This document shows positions 1 through 13,926 of a DNA stretch of 64,000 nt, piece after piece (position 1 is the first letter of the stretch; every line of letters starts with the position of its first letter). The position numbers were made by a program, and so were the translations under genes. Source of the DNA: a phage. Location: sequence record PZ151149.1. One strand, given 5' to 3'. The notes under the pieces were generated by a model. That model was not told where the DNA came from. It searched no databases and was given only the letters and a program-made list of their open reading frames with translations.

Positions 1-90
1 AGTAACAATTTCTCCTTTCTTTGCTGCATGTTCTACCATATACTTCAAAGTTTCTTCGGAAGCAAGTGCTGCCGCTACTGGATTAATCAT
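1..90 (-). CDS. hypothetical protein, N-terminal 30 codons only (gene continues beyond window start)
   Basis: ATG at 90..88 preceded by AAGGAGA; open frame runs to window edge; sits downstream of early promoter at 115..155. Confidence 0.4.
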   Translation of the reverse strand, partial: MINPVAAALASEETLKYMVEHAAKKGEIVT

Positions 91-114
91 TTTTGATTCT
101 CCTTTGTTGTCGAT

Positions 115-155
115 GTGTGCATTATGCTATACACTATTCCGGTTGTCAACACCTA
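115..155 (-). promoter_or_regulatory. early sigma70-type promoter (TTGACA-17-CATAAT)
   Basis: Reverse complement of 144..149 is TTGACA and of 121..126 is CATAAT, 17-nt spacer; member of repeated promoter family. Confidence 0.5.
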
Positions 156-160
156 AAAAC

Positions 161-192
161 AAAAAAGCCACCCTTTCGGATGGCTTTTGATT
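161..192 (-). terminator. intrinsic terminator (hairpin plus T-tract on minus strand)
   Basis: AGCCACCC-TTTCGG-ATGGCT inverted repeat, T6 on minus strand; near-identical hairpin recurs at 6510, 11449 and 54370. Confidence 0.55.
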
Positions 193-418
193 ATATTTTA
201 TTCACGTCCATTTGTATAGTAGTGTTTGAATCGACCTTTGCTAAACTAGTTAAACATAGTAACCAATTCACCATCCCTTTCCAATGATAACCCTTCCTCG
301 TCTTAGACGGGTCTTCCGATTCGGCAGTAATTGAACACGCGAAAGTATGAGGAAGCCAAATAGTTGTGTTAATGCTAGTATTCTTTTACTTATGGTATGC
401 ATCCCACGGTGACTAACA

Positions 419-817
419 TTAAGCCAGTCGAGTGAGTTTATAAATTGTTTTAAAGCATAGAGCTTTGATATCGTCTAAAATGCTCTGTAACGAGCTATCA
501 ACATCATTATAAATCTCACTAGCCATTTGCGTTAACTCTTGCAAATAGGCAATTTCGCTAATCTCCTTGCGGACGACCAACTTTGGCTGATAACGACCAG
601 TGATCCCAATATTGGTTTCAGTGAAATTATCAACCAATTCTTGCATTTCAAGATAGAACTCTTCTAGAGCCTTATGTTTTGCATAAGATCCAGGACCAGT
701 TACCCCAAAATGCGCAGAATGCATATAAGTAACACTCATCAGACATTCACCGATAAAGCGGTCAACTTTATTAGCCTTTCCCTCTTCGGAAGTCTTTAGA
801 AAATCACTGAATTTCAT
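419..817 (-). CDS. Dps/ferritin-like small protein
   Basis: Translation contains HSAHFGVTGPGSYAKHKALEEFY, matching the Dps motif HWNVKGPNFxxLHxKFEELY; start placed at internal Met of ORF 419..916. Confidence 0.55.
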   Translation of the reverse strand: MKFSDFLKTSEEGKANKVDRFIGECLMSVTYMHSAHFGVTGPGSYAKHKALEEFYLEMQELVDNFTETNIGITGRYQPKLVVRKEISEIAYLQELTQMASEIYNDVDSSLQSILDDIKALCFKTIYKLTRLA

Positions 818-1106
818 GTTCTCGATTCTCCATATTATGCAACAGAACAAATTGTTGTGCGGCATATCCCCCCATAATAAAACACTGCCTAGAATCCATA
901 CATTTACTACGAGCATACATCTTCATAATATGGGCATGAAATTTCTGGCTGGTTTCAATGGAAGGAGATATTTTGTTTACATATACTATCATTGCGCCGT
1001 CGAAATAATCAGTAAAGTCACCAGTTGGATCATATTGATCAGCACTGACACTTCCGACCGCAGTCAAGCATATTGCCGCTGTTAGAGTTTTACGAATAAA
1101 TGACAT
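804..1106 (-). CDS. rI: rI-like lysis-inhibition regulator (antiholin) with N-terminal signal anchor
   Basis: 100 aa, N-terminal hydrophobic signal (MSFIRKTLTAAICLTAVGSVSA), adjacent to tk as in T4; recalled similarity to T4 RI (not computed). Confidence 0.5.
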   Translation of the reverse strand: MSFIRKTLTAAICLTAVGSVSADQYDPTGDFTDYFDGAMIVYVNKISPSIETSQKFHAHIMKMYARSKCMDSRQCFIMGGYAAQQFVLLHNMENREHEIQ

Positions 1107-1174
1107 AAGTCATTCCCCCAGATTGAAAATATTCAGTTATATTTATAATCCGGGGCTTTATTTATGATTAACTC

Positions 1175-1771
1175 TTATTTGGTAGTACCATCAATAAAAT
1201 GTTTACGACACACAGAAACATATTTATCCTCTGCACCAACTTCTATTTGAGCACCATCGCGAATAACATTACCATCTTTATCTACGCGAAGGACCATAGT
1301 CGCTTTCTTGCCACAATGACAAATACCCTTCATTTCGACCAGTTTATCAGCAAATGCCATTAATGCCGCAGATCCTTCAAATAGATTGCCCTGAAAGTCA
1401 GTGCGAAGGCCATAGCACAGTACAGGGATATTAGCATCATCAACAAGCGCACACAAGCCTAAAACATGCTCTTTAGTCATAAATTGGGCTTCATCTACAA
1501 ATACAGCATCAGGACGCCAGCGATCCGTTCTACGCTTACCTAACGATTCACGATAAACCAAGTCGAAAAGATCATCCGATTTAGTGAAGGTGATCGCTGG
1601 AGCACTTAGGCCAATTCGGGAAACGACTTCACTTTCTGAATCTCGATTATCAATCGCTGGCTTAAGAATTAATACTCGCATATCACGTTCTGTATAGTTA
1701 TAAGCACTTTGTAACAGAGAAGTTGATTTGCCAGCGTTCATAGATGCATAGTAGAAATATAATTGCGCCAT
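1175..1771 (-). CDS. tk: thymidine kinase
   Basis: 198 aa; P-loop NAGKST and overall TK family pattern. Confidence 0.95.
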   Translation of the reverse strand: MAQLYFYYASMNAGKSTSLLQSAYNYTERDMRVLILKPAIDNRDSESEVVSRIGLSAPAITFTKSDDLFDLVYRESLGKRRTDRWRPDAVFVDEAQFMTKEHVLGLCALVDDANIPVLCYGLRTDFQGNLFEGSAALMAFADKLVEMKGICHCGKKATMVLRVDKDGNVIRDGAQIEVGAEDKYVSVCRKHFIDGTTK

Positions 1772-2064
1772 TAATTAATCTCCAAAAATCCAACAAGACC
1801 TAAACCGATATAAGTCCAGATACCAATAAAAAAGATGTTAATGCTCATGGCAAGGATAAACCCTTTCAGCGTTTTGGGATACCCGACCCAATATTCCCGA
1901 CCATCTTCTAACCGGATCAGTTTATTGCCTTGCGAGTCCATATCAACTACAACATGTTTATTTCGAGATTGCAATAGATATTGTTTTACAATCTCTACAC
2001 CCGCCATAATAACAATAACGAAAATAAAAGTCCACACAACAAGATTAATGATAGTCTCAAGCAT
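1771..2064 (-). CDS. small membrane protein (two predicted TM helices)
   Basis: 97 aa hydrophobic ORF, start overlaps tk stop. Confidence 0.55.
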   Translation of the reverse strand: MLETIINLVVWTFIFVIVIMAGVEIVKQYLLQSRNKHVVVDMDSQGNKLIRLEDGREYWVGYPKTLKGFILAMSINIFFIGIWTYIGLGLVGFLEIN

Positions 2065-2275
2065 TTTCTATCACCTCCACCCAATCAGGTGTTTCCTGAA
2101 AGACTCCTTCACCTTCATGATGGTCGCAACCTTTATTGCTACAATACATCCACCAATCCCACATTCCCCACGGTAAACGCTGCATATCGTCGTTACAGCA
2201 AGTGAAGATAATAGGCCAACCACATCTAACACATCGGCAGTTTTCTTTCATGTGAGCGGTATTAGGCTTCTTCAT
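2057..2275 (-). CDS. Cys/His-rich small protein (putative zinc-binding)
   Basis: CRCVRCGW...CC...C...C..HH pattern; start moved to internal Met to abut upstream gene. Confidence 0.45.
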   Translation of the reverse strand: MKKPNTAHMKENCRCVRCGWPIIFTCCNDDMQRLPWGMWDWWMYCSNKGCDHHEGEGVFQETPDWVEVIENA

Positions 2276-2466
2276 AGATGACTCCAATATAATCGACATT
2301 TACATTTAGGGCAATGCGGTTCTTTAATATAATACCCGTCTGTCTTTGGAACACTAACAGGAGCGGTTTTTATATTGTATTCAGTGAAACAACGAAAACA
2401 AGTTACGTTTTCTACAGACTGACGTTTCACCCAATCACCGGAATATAGATCATTTTTATTTGTCAT
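2272..2466 (-). CDS. zinc-ribbon small protein
   Basis: CxxC (CFRC) and CPKCKC pairs; start at internal Met MTNKND. Confidence 0.45.
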   Translation of the reverse strand: MTNKNDLYSGDWVKRQSVENVTCFRCFTEYNIKTAPVSVPKTDGYYIKEPHCPKCKCRLYWSHL

Positions 2467-2926
2467 ATTCAACCACCACAATATTGATATCTGGAGTAGC
2501 AATATTAATGATCTCTTCTACACATTCCCACTCAAGGCCACCGATACCGCAACCGATTTTAGGAATATAGAAAGGCTGTATAGCACCTTCAAAAACATCA
2601 TTGATAGTCTCAAATCCTTTCAGGATAGCACCATATTCAGCATTTGGACCCGGTCGGAATTGGGTATAGAGATTAACCCCGCACCAGTTATAACCATTAA
2701 CTTGATGCGTCCAGACACTAAACCCACCCAGCTTTTCTACCTTACCGCGAGAAGTTTGCTTGTCAATCTCTAACGCTTGTGGGAACTCTTTCGCGATCTT
2801 CGCAGCAATACCAGCGCCCATAGTATGAAAACAATTACAACCATGAATTAAATGACCGTTTCCTTGTTTAAACAGGGCGATGAGATCGCCCTTTACAGTA
2901 TCAATAATCATAATATAAACCTCCAA
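2456..2926 (-). CDS. macro-domain protein (ADP-ribose binding/processing family)
   Basis: Motifs HGCNCFHTMGAGIAAKI (cf. NAANxxLxGGGVxxAI) and IPKIGCGIGG (cf. FPAISTGIYG); GGAGG 7 nt upstream of ATG. Confidence 0.6.
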   Translation of the reverse strand: MEVYIMIIDTVKGDLIALFKQGNGHLIHGCNCFHTMGAGIAAKIAKEFPQALEIDKQTSRGKVEKLGGFSVWTHQVNGYNWCGVNLYTQFRPGPNAEYGAILKGFETINDVFEGAIQPFYIPKIGCGIGGLEWECVEEIINIATPDINIVVVEYDK

Positions 2927-3286
2927 TTAGTCACGGGAAGACAACCCAGCCATAAAACGGCTTAAAAGCGTGTCACGATAAGCAAAGCATAATTGCTTAT
3001 CAGGGGCAGTATCACACAGGTTGCGTTTTGTTTTAGCGAAACTGGCAATACTAAGATCCCATGCTCGATTTTTTCGTTTTTCATCTCGGCCTTGTTTATA
3101 GGCTTCGTCGAGTTCAAGTGCGATAAAATCGCTACACATGTTATCATCATCACAGAAGGTTTTAATGATCTTTTTGTTGATCTCAAATCCTTTGTATTCG
3201 AACTTTGGATAAGGTCGCTCATTACTAGCAAGCGCACCAGCAGAGAACATCATAGCAATCATAGCAATTATTGTCAACTTTTTCAT
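2927..3286 (-). CDS. secreted/periplasmic small protein (signal peptide)
   Basis: N-terminal MKKLTIIAMIAMMFSAGALA signal peptide, 4 Cys in mature part. Confidence 0.6.
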   Translation of the reverse strand: MKKLTIIAMIAMMFSAGALASNERPYPKFEYKGFEINKKIIKTFCDDDNMCSDFIALELDEAYKQGRDEKRKNRAWDLSIASFAKTKRNLCDTAPDKQLCFAYRDTLLSRFMAGLSSRD

Positions 3287-3293
3287 ACATTCC

Positions 3294-3884
3294 TCAATAG
3301 CGTTTAGTTTTAAGAATGCCTTTACTCTTTAGATGGTTAGCTTTTTTTAGTACGTCATCAGCATAACCTAAACCGGCTTTATAGTTCCACCCTGCATTGT
3401 AAGAAGCTAGCGCGAGTCGGATATTACCGTTTCGAACATCCAGCCAGTATGCTAACTCATCCATCGCGTAGAATGCAGAAACCTCGCGATTCATGATAAA
3501 GTTGATAGTCTGGCGATCACTCATTTTAACACCGCGCTTTGCATTTTTCGCTTTCACCGTTTTAAGGTAATTTTGAAATAATCCATAAGCATGATGATTT
3601 TTCTTTGGTGATAAGTTTGCACCCGCGCTTGATTCTTGCCATGCGATACCCGCCAAGATGTGACCTAAACCCTTTCCGTTATAGCGAATATTCGGATGGT
3701 CCTTTTTCAACTTACCGCTTTTCTCGAATTGCTCGCCGTATTGATAGGCGAAATGTAAATTATCTAGTTGGTGTGCTGTAAAGTTGTCTATCGGCGCTTT
3801 TTTGATCGGTGCGCTAGTCGATGCGTGTGTAGCACCAACGGCTAGTGACAGACTCAATACTATCGCTTTTAGAACTTTTAACAT
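3294..3884 (-). CDS. exported lytic transglycosylase (SLT-domain protein)
   Basis: Signal peptide plus SLT motifs AGIAWQESS, GLFQ, YNAGWNY. Confidence 0.75.
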   Translation of the reverse strand: MLKVLKAIVLSLSLAVGATHASTSAPIKKAPIDNFTAHQLDNLHFAYQYGEQFEKSGKLKKDHPNIRYNGKGLGHILAGIAWQESSAGANLSPKKNHHAYGLFQNYLKTVKAKNAKRGVKMSDRQTINFIMNREVSAFYAMDELAYWLDVRNGNIRLALASYNAGWNYKAGLGYADDVLKKANHLKSKGILKTKRY

Positions 3885-3969
3885 TAATTTCTCCTGTTTG
3901 GCTTAACTTTCTGATTCCATAATATAGCCCTATCACCAGAAAGTCAAGCATTAATTTAACAAATTTCCA

Positions 3970-4392
3970 TTATTGGTCTACCCTCAAAACAACAGCCGAC
4001 ATTTTACCCGCAAGTCGTTTTGGATTCTCTATAATCATTCGGCAGCATAGACCGTGATACGGTTTACCCTCTTCGATTAGATCTACTGTCATTCCGATCC
4101 ACATGTTACCGTCAGTAATTTCTAATCGATTAGGTCGGTCTTCCATTTTCAGGAAGTCGAAGATCTCCGGCAAACGAGTTTCTACCTTATTGAATAGTTC
4201 CATTGTCTTATGTTCATCGATATGACGATCGGTTAATCTGTCGATCATATGTGGACTAAAGCGAATGAAAATATACTCGCCGTAACCATCATTCAAGCAC
4301 TTTTCTTTGATCTGCGCATTGGTTTTGCGCATTTCGGTTTCGAAGAATCTGCGCAGCTTACTACGGCGAACATGTACGTTAATTGTTTCCAT
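3970..4392 (-). CDS. regB: RegB-like endoribonuclease
   Basis: Recalled similarity to T4 RegB (RRSKLRR..., RLEITDGNMWIGMTV); start at internal Met with AGGAGA RBS. Confidence 0.75.
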   Translation of the reverse strand: METINVHVRRSKLRRFFETEMRKTNAQIKEKCLNDGYGEYIFIRFSPHMIDRLTDRHIDEHKTMELFNKVETRLPEIFDFLKMEDRPNRLEITDGNMWIGMTVDLIEEGKPYHGLCCRMIIENPKRLAGKMSAVVLRVDQ

Positions 4393-4393
4393 T

Positions 4394-4732
4394 TTATTCT
4401 CCTTTCTTGAACAAATTGCGAAGCCAGTATACAAACGGGATTTCTTTAAACTTGAATTTCTCTATAGTTAATTCTTTAGTAGCAAGATGAATACCATAAG
4501 AATCATGTGTCACGATATGCCATTTTCTATAGTCCAAATGTGAACAACCATTTGAATCTAGGTTAATAATAGTTTCTCGCTCACTAGGATTGTTTTTCCA
4601 CGATTTTGTAATCGGATCGCACATAATTCGACCTAGCGTACCATGAATAATCTCGCATTTGTAAACCTTTCCGGCAGTGATATAAGCGCAACCGTCATAG
4701 TCGGTATAAACAAACACTTCTTTAACACTCAT
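4394..4732 (-). CDS. hypothetical protein, member of local 3-gene paralog family
   Basis: Shares NGCSHLDYRKW motif with next two genes; RBS AAAGGAG upstream of ATG 4732. Confidence 0.55.
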   Translation of the reverse strand: MSVKEVFVYTDYDGCAYITAGKVYKCEIIHGTLGRIMCDPITKSWKNNPSERETIINLDSNGCSHLDYRKWHIVTHDSYGIHLATKELTIEKFKFKEIPFVYWLRNLFKKGE

Positions 4733-4757
4733 TTTAATACTCCTTTGTAGTTTCGAT

Positions 4758-4798
4758 GGGGGTATATTACTACCCCCGTTTTGACGTGTCAACTACTT
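4758..4798 (-). promoter_or_regulatory. early sigma70-type promoter (TTGACA-17-TAATAT)
   Basis: -35 at 4787..4792 (rc TTGACA), -10 at 4764..4769 (rc TAATAT); -10 embedded in palindrome GGGGGTA..TACCCCC. Confidence 0.45.
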
Positions 4799-5038
4799 TT
4801 TCAAGAATTTTTTGAGTACATTCCAAAGACCTTTATTCTCGGCTTGTTTTGGTTCTTCGATCAGTGTCCATGTTCGACCGTCTAAGTGTGCACAATTTTT
4901 AAGGCAAATAAAAATCTGGTGTCCCTTATCATCACGGATATAACCACTATTCGCAAATCTTTCATGTGGTGTATATTCATACAGTGTATTCGGTGTAATA
5001 TACTTGCGGTTACTATAAGGTGTCGTTACATATTTCAT
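4793..5038 (-). CDS. hypothetical protein, paralog family
   Basis: ITPNTLYEYTP...GYIRDD...CAHLDGRTW pattern shared with 5035..5229. Confidence 0.55.
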   Translation of the reverse strand: MKYVTTPYSNRKYITPNTLYEYTPHERFANSGYIRDDKGHQIFICLKNCAHLDGRTWTLIEEPKQAENKGLWNVLKKFLKK

Positions 5039-5229
5039 GGTACTAACTCCCAACGATCACCGCGAAGATGAGAACATCCACCATCAAGAAGGATCGTAAT
5101 ACGAAACCCCGCATCATCTTCAATATACCCGATAGTCGGTGGATGTTCGTCGTCTCGTGTCGGGGTAAAATCATACATCTTTCCCGGTGTGATATCATTG
5201 CCTTTATTGCTATTGGTATAAACTTGCAT
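5035..5229 (-). CDS. hypothetical protein, paralog family
   Basis: ITPGKMYDFTP...GYIEDD...CSHLRGDRW pattern. Confidence 0.55.
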   Translation of the reverse strand: MQVYTNSNKGNDITPGKMYDFTPTRDDEHPPTIGYIEDDAGFRITILLDGGCSHLRGDRWELVP

Positions 5230-5250
5230 TTTCTTAATCTCCTACATTAA

Positions 5251-5949
5251 CTAACCACGGGTATAGTGTTCCAGAACAACGGTCAGATGAATATATTCTA
5301 ATAAATCTTTCCAAAAGTCAACATCTGGTTCTTCCGGCATACCGTTTTTCTTTGCCTCTTCACGCGCGAGTTTAACACGCTCGTAGAGATCTTTCAATTC
5401 TTCCCGCACATTATCAAAGGTTCTTTCTCCTAACTTACACGCTAAAATAGAAGAACGTCGCGCGAGAGGGAATTGTAGATCACCAGTCTGATAGATTTCA
5501 AGTAGCTGATAACCAACACGCAGAGCATGAGAAAGGTCTTTCCAGTTACTGAAATACTTTTCAGATTTGGCTACCTGCTTTTTGAGATAACCGGAGCACC
5601 CCCACATACCAACATGATAGAATTTATCGCGATGTGTTCGGATGTATTCCCATTCTCTGGAGGATTCAATCAACATGTTACTAGGCGCGTGCACCATGTC
5701 AATAGCGCCGATATCACCTTTACATGCCAGATTGATAAACCGTTTTAGACTGAACATATTAACGTCAATATCGTCTTTGGTGTTCTTGATACCTTGACCG
5801 CTAGTGCTTTGGTCATAGTGTTCTTTCATCGATCCTAAGATAATTTCTTTCGCAGTCGGAACAAAGATACCACGATAATCTTTATCGGAATTTTCAGTAT
5901 CAAGGCCGTATAAGTGAGATCCGAAGACCATTTTAACCATTGTATGCAT
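5251..5949 (-). CDS. Pol-beta-superfamily nucleotidyltransferase
   Basis: N-terminal FGSHLYGLDTENSDKDYRG (GS...DxD nucleotidyltransferase signature) followed by helical C-terminal region. Confidence 0.6.
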   Translation of the reverse strand: MHTMVKMVFGSHLYGLDTENSDKDYRGIFVPTAKEIILGSMKEHYDQSTSGQGIKNTKDDIDVNMFSLKRFINLACKGDIGAIDMVHAPSNMLIESSREWEYIRTHRDKFYHVGMWGCSGYLKKQVAKSEKYFSNWKDLSHALRVGYQLLEIYQTGDLQFPLARRSSILACKLGERTFDNVREELKDLYERVKLAREEAKKNGMPEEPDVDFWKDLLEYIHLTVVLEHYTRG

Positions 5950-13455: not shown

Positions 13456-13926
13456 TTACAGTTTGGTCGTCCACTCCAGGTCTAGATCTTCGACATACTC
13501 ATGAGATCGGACAATCTCTAAATCGAACTCTAGGTCAGTGCCAAATTTACGCGCACCAACATCATAAGAAAGCGTGATATGCGGTACATATTCAGGATAA
13601 TCCCACGTCGCACCTAAAGCAGTGCCGATATCGTGTCTGAATTGCATGTAGTCGCTTTCAAATGCCAACACAAGTGCATTAGTACCGGATTGAGTTTCAA
13701 ACACTTTCAAATGGCATAGAGAGCCTAAGAACTTCTCCCCTTCTTCTGGGATAAACGGAACATAAACACGAGAATATAAGATAGTGCTATGCAGTTTATC
13801 ACGAGTAACGGCATTAGGCAGATCGTAGAACTCCTGCAATTTTTCAATGCGGTCTAGTGTATCCTCAGTGAATTTAACCGCCGCATATGTACCTTTAACG
13901 GATTCTCGAAACGGGGTCATAATCAA
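13456..13926 (-). CDS. 57B: 2H-phosphoesterase-like protein (T4 57B position)
   Basis: Two H-x-T/S motifs (HSTIL, HITLS) typical of LigT/2H phosphoesterases; gene order matches T4 57B-57A-1. Confidence 0.55.
   Translation of the reverse strand: MIMTPFRESVKGTYAAVKFTEDTLDRIEKLQEFYDLPNAVTRDKLHSTILYSRVYVPFIPEEGEKFLGSLCHLKVFETQSGTNALVLAFESDYMQFRHDIGTALGATWDYPEYVPHITLSYDVGARKFGTDLEFDLEIVRSHEYVEDLDLEWTTKL

Follow-up and report, generated by a model that had tools for sequence, protein, structure and literature searches.

The macrodomain protein encoded in the early region of this T4-type phage is the Krischvirus ortholog of T4 Tk.4/AdfM and, at a probability of roughly 80%, strips ADP-ribose off phage DNA to defeat the host defense system DarTG2; this proposed role combines its sequence with analogy to the T4 protein. 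Its fold, family, orthology, synteny and active-site residues are established in the present analysis. The window, i.e., the whole stretch of 64,000 nucleotides that was analyzed (PZ151149.1), derives from a Krischvirus, an RB49/JSE-like T4-type coliphage with 97-98% identity to phages JSE, RB49, and Phi1. The region comprising tk.4 and the genes of two small zinc proteins, here called Zn2 and Zn1, is conserved at 97-98% identity across 59 phage records; the macro, Zn2, and Zn1 ORFs are therefore conserved genes, not chance ORFs.

Gene Neighborhood and Transcription

Table 1. Genes and promoter-like sites around the Krischvirus tk.4 gene, in order of decreasing coordinates.
Feature	Position	Strand	Evidence and remarks
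Sigma-70-like promoter match TTGACT-17-TATTAT	3919..3947	(-)	Consensus match only; in 85-nt regB/vs.1 gap
vs.1	3294..3884	(-)	SLT-like transglycosylase domain; profile match and JSE annotation; probable first gene of transcription unit
Second, stronger sigma-70-like match TTGACA-17-TATGAT, extended TG, 11/12	3249..3277	(-)	Consensus match only; inside vs 5' end
vs, valyl-tRNA synthetase modifier	2927..3286	(-)	JSE annotation; directly upstream of tk.4
tk.4/adfM ortholog, 151-aa stand-alone macrodomain protein, TARG1/DarG/SCO6735 class	2456..2911	(-)	Pfam, PADLOC, AF2, Foldseek, JSE annotation
Zn2, 64-aa zinc-ribbon protein	2272..2466	(-)	Pfam PF23903 Phage_zn_bind_2; PHROG 4864
Zn1, 72-aa Cys/Trp-rich protein	2057..2275	(-)	Pfam PF23895 Phage_zn_bind; PHROG 2306
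97-aa ORF, hydrophobic N- and C-terminal segments (putative membrane protein)	1771..2064	(-)	PHROG 16027
tk, thymidine kinase	1175..1771	(-)	Pfam TK E 6e-52 and JSE annotation; downstream end of tight chain

The macro, Zn2, and Zn1 ORFs are all located on the minus strand. In the ORF list the macro ORF extends from 2456 to 2926, with a TTG start and 156 amino acids; the gene likely starts at the ATG at 2911, which is favored because it is preceded by GGAGG 8 nt upstream, agrees with the JSE annotation, and is the position where homologs start. The 156-aa macrodomain ORF proposed in an earlier note on this DNA is thus upheld as a macrodomain by profile, fold, and family, but its length is revised to 151 residues. 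For Zn1, the listed ORF extends to 2299; the second Met at 2275 is the most likely start, since it creates an ATGA stop/start overlap with Zn2 and is preceded by GGAG 6 nt upstream.

The genes are closely packed: a gap of 15 nt separates vs from tk.4, and overlaps link tk.4 and Zn2 (11 nt), Zn2 and Zn1 (4 nt), Zn1 and the membrane ORF (8 nt; so called for its hydrophobic terminal segments, which suggest a membrane location), and the membrane ORF and tk (1 nt). These short gaps and overlaps define a tight chain of at least seven genes, vs.1-vs-tk.4-Zn2-Zn1-membrane ORF-tk, that is probably co-transcribed, judging from its packing and the absence of a convincing terminator; the sole terminator-like site on the minus strand (2962..2948) has a poor T tail and was not counted. 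The earlier note had proposed co-transcription of the macrodomain gene with two tightly coupled Cys-rich ORFs directly downstream. The two ORFs are confirmed by their overlaps and by their matches to PF23903 and PF23895, and the tight overlaps are consistent with a shared transcript, but the predicted unit comprises at least seven genes, not three. The promoter match upstream of vs.1 is a candidate early promoter for the vs.1-to-tk chain, and the match within vs is a possible internal promoter feeding tk.4 and the genes downstream. The gene order regB-vs.1-vs-tk.4-...-tk is common to the window, JSE, T4, IME537, S16, and KPV15-like contigs. In the 64-kb window, an Acb1 homolog was the sole match of a scan that also covered phage ADP-ribosyltransferases, NADAR (AdfN), and AdfA.

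Fold and Active Site of the Macrodomain Protein

The Pfam Macro profile (PF01661) aligned to the protein from end to end (profile positions 1-118 of 118) with 28.7 bits (E 1.3e-6; curated cut-off 22). A match to the DarG profile of PADLOC (E 3.9e-14) was confined to the macro part of that profile (positions 3-141 of 329). The best PDB profile match was Bacteroides BT1257 (2FG1; E 5.5e-16), and the best single-sequence PDB match was the DarG macrodomain of Mycobacterium tuberculosis (5m3i). The AlphaFold2 model (pLDDT 96.8) has a mixed alpha/beta macro fold; of the 181 PDB entries that Foldseek matched to it at E <= 0.001, the 50 listed are all either macrodomains or enzymes designed on macro-like scaffolds. 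The top fold matches are TARG1, Poa1p, and the DarG macrodomains, with TM scores of 0.71-0.84 (E 4e-11 for TARG1, 3.7e-9 for DarG of Thermus aquaticus, and 5.8e-9 for DarG of M. tuberculosis). The motifs GAGIAAKI and IPKIGCGIGG occupy residues 32-39 and 116-125 of the 151-aa protein; the glycine-rich ADP-ribose-binding loops are M31-G-A-G-I-A and I119-G-C-G-I-G-G125.

The key residues are H23, N26, Q84, and the loop G120-C-G-I-G-G125; among 53 sampled Tk.4/AdfM family members, N26 is invariant, and H23 and Q84 are each found in 52. In the alignment, H23/N26/Q84 correspond to H24/N27/Q85 of SCO6735 from Streptomyces coelicolor, and Q84 also aligns with a Gln in BT1257, with K84 of TARG1, and with K80 of T. 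aquaticus DarG. A His/Asn/Gln set is present, with Gln replacing the catalytic Lys of DarG and TARG1; since this Gln is found in 52 of the 53 members, the appropriate comparison for the clade is SCO6735 and not DarG, and its catalysis is probably of the SCO6735 type, not dependent on Lys as in DarG and TARG1. On ssDNA, SCO6735 hydrolyzes thymidine-linked ADP-ribose by means of Gln85 and Asn27; its Q85A mutant is inactive but still inhibits DarT, and its N27S mutant is almost inactive (PMC9411070). By the same logic, the substitutions expected to inactivate the phage protein, for use as controls, are Q84A and N26A, and it offers no K-to-A equivalent; the Gln-type active site also matters when asking if inhibitors of DarG would work on the phage enzyme.

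SCO6735 (5E3B) and BT1257 resemble the phage protein as stand-alone macrodomains of ca. 150-180 amino acids with the His/Asn/Gln set, and SCO6735 would also share its activity on thymidine-linked ADP-ribose on ssDNA and its protective effect against DarT if the proposed role holds. In contrast to the phage protein, both are cellular proteins with NMIGQH in place of NLYTQF and an identity of only ca. 23-24%, and SCO6735 is inducible by DNA damage. Their mobile loop, which contains Lys89 and Lys94, is also longer; according to the alignment, neither this loop nor Lys34, both implicated in DNA binding by SCO6735, has a counterpart in the phage protein, in which a shorter loop (FRPGPN) follows Q84, the K34 equivalent is Ala33, and R86 is not kept in T4. 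Human TARG1/OARD1 (4J5S), which cleaves thymidine-linked ADP-ribose, is the best structural match (TM 0.78-0.84, 28-29% identity), but its catalytic dyad K84/D125 is replaced by Q84/G124. The DarG macrodomains of DarTG2 (M. tuberculosis 5M3I, T. aquaticus 5M31/5M3E) share the macro fold (TM 0.78), the conserved Asn (N22/N26), and the same predicted substrate. Membership in DarG was nevertheless rejected: DarG has the catalytic Lys80 (Gln84 in the phage protein), a C-terminal DarT-binding domain, and an adjacent darT gene, none of which accompany the phage-encoded macro gene.

Orthology to T4 Tk.4 and Proposed Role

The macrodomain protein is a full-length homolog of T4 Tk.4 (151 vs. 155 amino acids), with 44% identity over 150 of its 151 residues (E 9e-45). 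Both proteins share the motif H-G-C-N-C-F-H-T-M-G, an NLYTQ motif that places Gln where other macrodomains have the catalytic Lys, and an I-G-x-G-I-G loop. The gene is annotated as tk.4 in JSE and is the syntenic ortholog of T4 tk.4, in the same early-region position between vs and tk; it has diverged to a similar degree as its flanking genes in other T4-type genera. T4 differs in belonging to another genus, and in its downstream genes, where Tk.3, Tk.2, and Tk.1 (DUF7202, DUF7438) replace Zn2, Zn1, and the membrane ORF.

According to genetic evidence in a preprint, T4 depends on tk.4, renamed adfM, to grow on DarTG2 hosts: no other T4 gene scored significantly on such a host, and clean deletion of tk.4 sensitized the phage (bioRxiv 10.1101/2025.11.20.689424). 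The AdfM protein gp104 of phage PhiKZ removes DarT2-made ADP-ribose from a DNA oligonucleotide in vitro (PMC13309987). Like Tk.4, gp104 is a stand-alone phage macrodomain that counters DarTG2 via DNA ADP-ribose removal, and it has the conserved Asn (N23); unlike the Gln-type Tk.4 family, it is of the DarG-like Lys type (FPTK, K78), and it forms a separate lineage, aligns poorly with the Tk.4 family in its central part, and is imported into the phage nucleus. These precedents fit the suggestion in the earlier note that a phage macrodomain could reverse the action of DarT-type defense toxins; the idea is right and not new, as the anti-DarT role is already published for the T4 ortholog. By analogy with T4 Tk.4, we infer the same substrate and phenotype for the Krischvirus protein, with the caveat that an identity of only 44% leaves room for a different substrate specificity.

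The protein would then act as an orphan, antitoxin-like macrodomain that is produced early in infection. In a DarTG2-carrying E. coli, released DarT2 would ADP-ribosylate thymidines in single-stranded phage DNA and block replication; the macrodomain would bind the ADP-ribose and hydrolyze the ribose-thymine bond, restoring the DNA. Gln84, held by Asn26, would orient the distal ribose so that an activated water can attack it, and the protein may in addition bind DarT2 and inhibit it directly, as catalytically dead SCO6735 does. The Zn2, Zn1, and membrane protein genes would be co-expressed neighbors in a variable early-gene cassette, dispensable for macrodomain activity. If so, the anti-DarTG2 macrodomain known from T4 is also present in RB49-type coliphages, which helps to predict which therapeutic or model phages escape DarTG2.

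The substrates of macrodomains of the TARG1/DarG/SCO6735 class also include protein Glu/Asp-ADP-ribose, O-acetyl-ADP-ribose, and ADP-ribose-1''-phosphate, so that substrates other than DNA have to be weighed for the phage protein. Erasure of protein or RNA ADP-ribosylation instead of DNA marks, be it the Alt/ModA/ModB marks of the phage or those of host toxins, appears quite improbable. T4-type phages do encode ADP-ribosyltransferases (T4 alt, modA, and modB), an RNA-ADP-ribosylating defense system is on record, and TARG1 and SCO6735 also take Glu-linked ADP-ribose off proteins (PMC9411070); yet the T4 screen linked tk.4 specifically to DarTG2, the H/N/Q triad is that of an enzyme shown to be active on thymidine-linked DNA (SCO6735), and no genetic link connects alt, modA, or modB to tk.4. 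The scan of the 64-kb window yielded no homologs of these or other phage ADP-ribosyltransferases, of NADAR (AdfN), or of AdfA, leaving the suggestion in the earlier note that the macrodomain might tune the phage's own ADP-ribosyltransferases without support. Dual activity on DNA and on protein or RNA is possible.

It is very unlikely that the protein is a Poa1p-like ADP-ribose-1''-phosphate phosphatase or an O-acetyl-ADP-ribose deacetylase that acts on small metabolites, by-products of NAD-consuming reactions during infection. Yeast Poa1p does match the protein (Foldseek E ca. 3e-9, TM 0.65-0.71; profile E 1e-12), but TARG1, DarG, BT1257, and SCO6735 match equally well or better; the RefSeq label "phosphatase; contains A1pp phosphatase motif" and the label "phosphatase" of PHROG 335 are inherited from an old domain name with no assay behind it. 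Macro genes of other phages adjoin NAMPT or ribose-phosphate pyrophosphokinase genes, as small-metabolite substrates would suggest, but we know of no pathway in T4-type phages that produces ADP-ribose-1''-phosphate, and the specific DarTG2 phenotype of the T4 ortholog speaks against this reading.

The Zinc Proteins and Their Link to the Macrodomain

Zn2 (CFRC...CPKC; C23-x2-C26 ... C52-x2-C55) matches PF23903 with 83.3 bits against a cut-off of 27 (E 1e-23); among 22 homologs, C23, C26, and C52 are invariant, and C55 is conserved in at least 90%. Zn1 matches PF23895 with 116.5 bits, also against a cut-off of 27 (E 6e-34), and its CxxC ... CSNKxCxxH pattern is conserved in a three-sequence alignment. 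The AlphaFold2 model of Zn2 (pLDDT 80) found no significant fold match in the PDB; the best E-values of the PDB sequence searches with Zn1 and Zn2 and of the Zn2 fold search range from 0.24 to 0.55, and matches to sirtuin zinc modules were rejected as generic zinc ribbons. In Tequatrovirus IME537 and Gelderlandvirus S16, Zn1 homologs are likewise located between tk.4 and tk. A whole-genome profile scan of T4 found no homolog of either protein (best E 0.023 and 0.15, in non-coding frames), and T4 Tk.1-3 were rejected as counterparts; they belong to DUF7438 and DUF7202 and lack the Cys ligand pattern.

The possibility that the Cys-rich proteins are partners of the macrodomain, also raised in the earlier note, finds some encouragement in a macro-Zn2 block of rV5-like phages and is countered by T4, which has neither Zn1 nor Zn2, so that the zinc proteins are not obligatory partners. 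As partners, the macrodomain and Zn2 and/or Zn1 would act in a complex in which the zinc protein binds DarT2 or targets ssDNA, standing in for the C-terminal toxin-binding domain of DarG that is absent here. The overlapping start and stop codons of tk.4, Zn2, and Zn1 suggest coupled translation, and the macro protein spans only the macro part of the DarG profile, as expected for such a complex. The macro and Zn2 genes are also the only genes common to Krischvirus and the unrelated rV5-like phages, with identities of 68% (amino acids) and 67% (DNA) for the macro gene and of 78% and 74% for Zn2; Zn1 adjoins or is near tk.4 in several T4-type genera. A macro gene lies within 5 kb and on the same strand in six of the 11 hand-sorted groups of Zn2-bearing loci, one of which (L018) rests on a weak macro match (E 1e-9); since the lineages are related and the early regions gene-dense, such adjacency counts are only suggestive. 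Nevertheless, T4 Tk.4 is the sole DarTG2 hit in a phage that lacks both zinc proteins, and the macro protein is far more common (ca. 2,785 phage records with a tk.4-type protein) than Zn2 (234) or Zn1 (787). Some Zn2 genes have no macro gene in their vicinity and instead adjoin Acb1, Sir2, and Nudix genes, an HD hydrolase, or a Dam methylase; the members of all 24 Zn2 clusters are stand-alone proteins of 36-84 amino acids with no fusions, and the Zn2 fold has no informative match. A functional complex is therefore unlikely, and a macrodomain that acts on its own is the preferred reading.

The joint distribution of the two genes was also surveyed by tblastn with a concatenated macro+Zn2 query, where 236, 219, and 60 records reached at least 80% coverage at E cut-offs of 1e-3, 1e-6, and 1e-30; these counts depend on the per-piece E cut-off and include larger macro proteins that gave one long alignment, so that identity bands and locus-by-locus analysis were used instead. 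The identity bands comprise ca. 58 Krischvirus and ca. 129 rV5-like records. Zn2 and the AdfM macrodomain move together as a two-gene block between unrelated phage families, a cheap testable lead on the Zn2 family. It is conceivable, if doubtful, that Zn2 is a portable accessory protein of phage counter-defense enzymes that act on nucleotide-derived marks or signals; as such it could be a toxin-binding or nucleic-acid-targeting subunit (e.g., a stand-in for the DarT-binding domain of DarG) or an independent small inhibitor of defense proteins. Outside the two-gene block, Zn2 is found directly beside Acb1-like, Sir2/Nudix/NAMPT, or SpoT-like HD genes.

Macrodomain Identity, Orthology and Predicted Function

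Both macro-domain motifs quoted in the earlier note, GAGIAAKI and IPKIGCGIGG, were found in the tk.4 gene product (residues 32-39 and 116-125); the protein scores over the curated cut-off in the Pfam Macro search, and its AlphaFold2 model (53 input homologs; mean pLDDT 96.8) matches macrodomains in the PDB. Its best matches there are TARG1 (TM 0.78-0.84), two DarG macrodomains, from T. aquaticus and M. tuberculosis (each with TM near 0.78), and Poa1p from yeast. It is a member of the macro superfamily, in the TARG1/DarG/SCO6735 class. The reading frame as listed at 2456-2926 opens with TTG; since the candidate start ATG at 2911 is preceded by GGAGG at a spacing of 8 nt, is identical to the start annotated in phage JSE, and is the position where the homologs begin, the protein has 151 residues, and the 156 proposed earlier had to be corrected.

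Judging from sequence and position, the gene is the ortholog of T4 tk.4; the proteins share 44% identity over their full length, and both genes occupy the identical slot between vs and tk. Its divergence from other T4-type genera (44-47%) is comparable to that of the flanking genes (tk 53-60%, vs.1 45-56%, regB 37-40%), and relatives are encoded in about 2,785 phage records. The suggestion that such a macrodomain could reverse DarT-type ADP-ribosylation is already in print for the T4 ortholog: tk.4 was the single significant match in a T4 transposon screen on a DarTG2-expressing host, a clean T4 tk.4 knockout was DarTG2-sensitive, and tk.4 received the new name adfM (anti-DarT factor macrodomain); the preprint likens Tk.4 to DarG and infers hydrolysis without biochemistry (bioRxiv 10.1101/2025.11.20.689424). 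The PhiKZ macrodomain gp104, independently named AdfM, strips DarT2-made ADP-ribose from an oligonucleotide and neutralizes DarT2 toxicity (PMC13309987). Since the role of Tk.4/AdfM is published, the finding is known in kind and in function; that the window protein is an anti-DarTG2 hydrolase is probable (about 0.8).

The PADLOC DarG profile matches the protein with its macro part only (positions 3-141 of 329; E 3.9e-14). A DarG identity was ruled out by the missing Lys, toxin-binding domain, and adjacent darT gene; the protein would instead act in the manner of an orphan antitoxin. Databases list tk.4 as a "phosphatase", a term taken over from the former name of the domain, A1pp, and backed by no assay. 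Homologs of alt, modA, modB, AdfN (30.3), AdfA (61.2), and nudE were not found in the 64-kb window. At 13459-13920 (-) the window also encodes an Acb1 homolog, 46% identical (E 6e-40) to T4 57B/Acb1, the cyclic-nucleotide phosphodiesterase that counters CBASS.

Active Site

The predicted catalytic residues, which the earlier note had proposed to inspect, are conserved: in an alignment of 53 family members N26 is invariant, and H23 and Q84 each occur in 52. In the alignments, Q84 stands where TARG1 has its catalytic Lys84 and DarG the corresponding lysine, and Gly124 takes the position of TARG1 Asp125. PhiKZ gp104 retains the lysine (FPTK, K78), whereas the glutamine is common to the window protein, Bacteroides BT1257 (its top PDB profile match, E 5.5e-16), and Streptomyces SCO6735. 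The latter efficiently cleaves thymidine-linked ADP-ribose on ssDNA, by a proposed mechanism with a backbone-positioned water; the Q85A exchange abolishes this activity and N27S nearly does, and the dead mutant still inhibits DarT through binding (PMC9411070). Since the glutamine is shared with an active enzyme, the missing lysine is no sign of an inactive protein. By alignment, the Tk.4/AdfM clade thus carries an SCO6735-type active site, with a predicted activity to match, and this Gln-type assignment for the whole clade is an addition of the present analysis. The lysines implicated in DNA binding and the longer mobile loop of SCO6735 are not conserved in the window protein, and DNA recognition may differ.

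Gene Organization

Over bases 1000-4500 the window shares 97-98% identity with 59 records, among them Escherichia phages JSE, RB49, and Phi1; every one is a Krischvirus, the genus of RB49-like T4-type coliphages. The minus-strand annotation of JSE reads, in transcription order, regB, vs.1, vs, tk.4, three hypothetical proteins, tk, and rI. The two tightly coupled Cys-rich reading frames noticed downstream of the macro gene, here Zn2 and Zn1, overlap by 4 nt and both fall in curated phage protein families.

Features and gene junctions of the tk.4 region
Feature	Coordinates	Strand	Remark
Zn2	2272-2466	-	64 aa, PF23903 member
Zn1	2057-2275	-	from second Met; 72 aa, PF23895 member
Sigma-70-like promoter match	3947..3919	-	sequence match, candidate
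Sigma-70-like promoter match inside vs	3277..3249	-	TTGACA-17-TATGAT, extended TG, 11 of 12; candidate
Junction vs.1/vs			gap 7 nt
Junction vs/tk.4			gap 15 nt
Junction tk.4/Zn2			overlap 11 nt
Junction Zn2/Zn1			overlap 4 nt
Junction Zn1/membrane ORF			overlap 8 nt
Junction membrane ORF/tk			overlap 1 nt

No convincing terminator was found from the regB-vs.1 gap through the end of tk; together with the spacing, this places the macro gene, Zn2, and Zn1 in a packed chain of early genes with no fewer than seven members. The three are probably co-transcribed, as the earlier note had it, in a unit larger than the three genes then considered. The promoter match inside vs is the strongest sigma-70-like match of the region and lies in the opening 40 nt of the vs reading frame; the predicted transcript would omit the vs start codon, yet span tk.4 and the downstream genes. 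Between regB and nrdC.11, three successive small reading frames (4394-5229, -) are mutual paralogs (28-34% identity) with a common pattern around GYI.DD.G ... CSHL.G..W; one gene of unassigned function has been triplicated in tandem here.

Cysteine-Rich Neighbors as Possible Partners

The earlier note had considered both Cys-rich proteins as partners of the macrodomain. A six-frame profile scan of the complete T4 genome found no homolog of Zn1 or Zn2 (best E 0.023 and 0.15, in non-coding frames), and T4 Tk.4, the only screen match, is necessary for DarTG2 resistance (bioRxiv 10.1101/2025.11.20.689424); this speaks decisively against an obligate partnership, and Zn1 and Zn2 are best regarded as dispensable neighbors. 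Zn1 homologs (787 phage records) occupy the tk.4-tk interval in other T4-type genera too: in Salmonella phage S16 the gene directly follows tk.4, and in Tequatrovirus IME537 one reading frame separates the two, a distribution that fits vertical inheritance in a variable cassette. Zn2 is scarcer (234 phage records). In rV5-like Vequintavirus phages, the macro protein and Zn2 share 68 and 78% amino-acid identity with the window (DNA, 67 and 74%), with one additional small reading frame separating them; since no other genes of the region are shared, these two indicate a block exchanged between unrelated phage families. The partner idea persists as a weak lead, solely for Zn2. The dispensability of the zinc genes and the macro-Zn2 block of rV5-like phages are additions of this analysis.

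Elsewhere Zn2 keeps other company. KPV15-like T4-type Klebsiella phages have it right behind tk, with the macro gene about 1.1 kb distant. In Mydovirus and its relatives its neighbor is a SpoT-like HD protein, and a macro gene is found at a distance of 3-4 kb; in Alexandravirus-like phages it is next to a Dam methylase. Three jumbo phages (GAP32, CBB, and pEa_SNUABM_49) lack a macro gene in the vicinity of Zn2; there it is flanked by an Acb1-like 2H phosphoesterase on one side and by Sir2 and Nudix on the other, and NAMPT is encoded upstream; in GAP32 it additionally follows an NMNAT/ADP-ribose pyrophosphatase gene. No macro gene was found inside the fetched flanks of Zn2 in loci L009, L016, L017, and L020; in L020, a gene for a SpoT-like HD protein is about 1.2 kb distant. 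In a large protein collection, Zn2 forms 24 clusters of 36-84 aa, stand-alone throughout; its predicted model is a small zinc ribbon (pLDDT 80), and a structure search gave no significant match.

Associated Observations

NAMPT, the Acb1-like 2H phosphoesterase, Zn2, Sir2, and Nudix form a compact NAD/ADP-ribose cluster in jumbo-phage loci L004 (GAP32, 1-5909; the NMNAT/ADP-ribose pyrophosphatase gene is annotated just ahead of it), L006 (CBB), L007 (pEa_SNUABM_49), and L013, which in gene content looks like an NAD-reconstitution and anti-signaling island. In Acinetobacter and Vibrio phages (listing rows H288, H306, H312; H71), Tk.4-like macro genes are annotated beside nicotinamide phosphoribosyltransferase or ribose-phosphate pyrophosphokinase genes, another link of phage macrodomains with NAD salvage. 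In Mydovirus-like phages (loci L005, 3432-4123; L022, 4432-5123; L021, 4935-5819; L020, 3126-5168), Zn2 adjoins a small HD protein resembling SpoT/Mesh1 or is at most about 1.2 kb away from it. The HD protein was called in L005 from a weak Pfam HD_4 match below the curated cut-off (E 6e-5) and in the others by sequence resemblance; it may be an alarmone hydrolase. The divergent Krischvirus LF73P4 (OZ035795.1, row H199), has a macro protein just 83% identical, and under the strict E cut-off applied no Zn2 piece was linked with it; the genes that follow tk.4 may thus differ even inside Krischvirus. Five "Campylobacter phage" records of 75-141 kb (MG065646, MG065659, MG065666, MG065672, MG065674) contain macro and Zn2 genes of the rV5 type, with identities equal to those of E. 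coli rV5-like phages, and their host label looks doubtful. In the T4 RefSeq record NC_000866 (loci L002, L031), two misannotations are name-driven: mobD.4 is entered as [quoted passage not shown], and "Tk.2" is the name attached to the product of tk.3.
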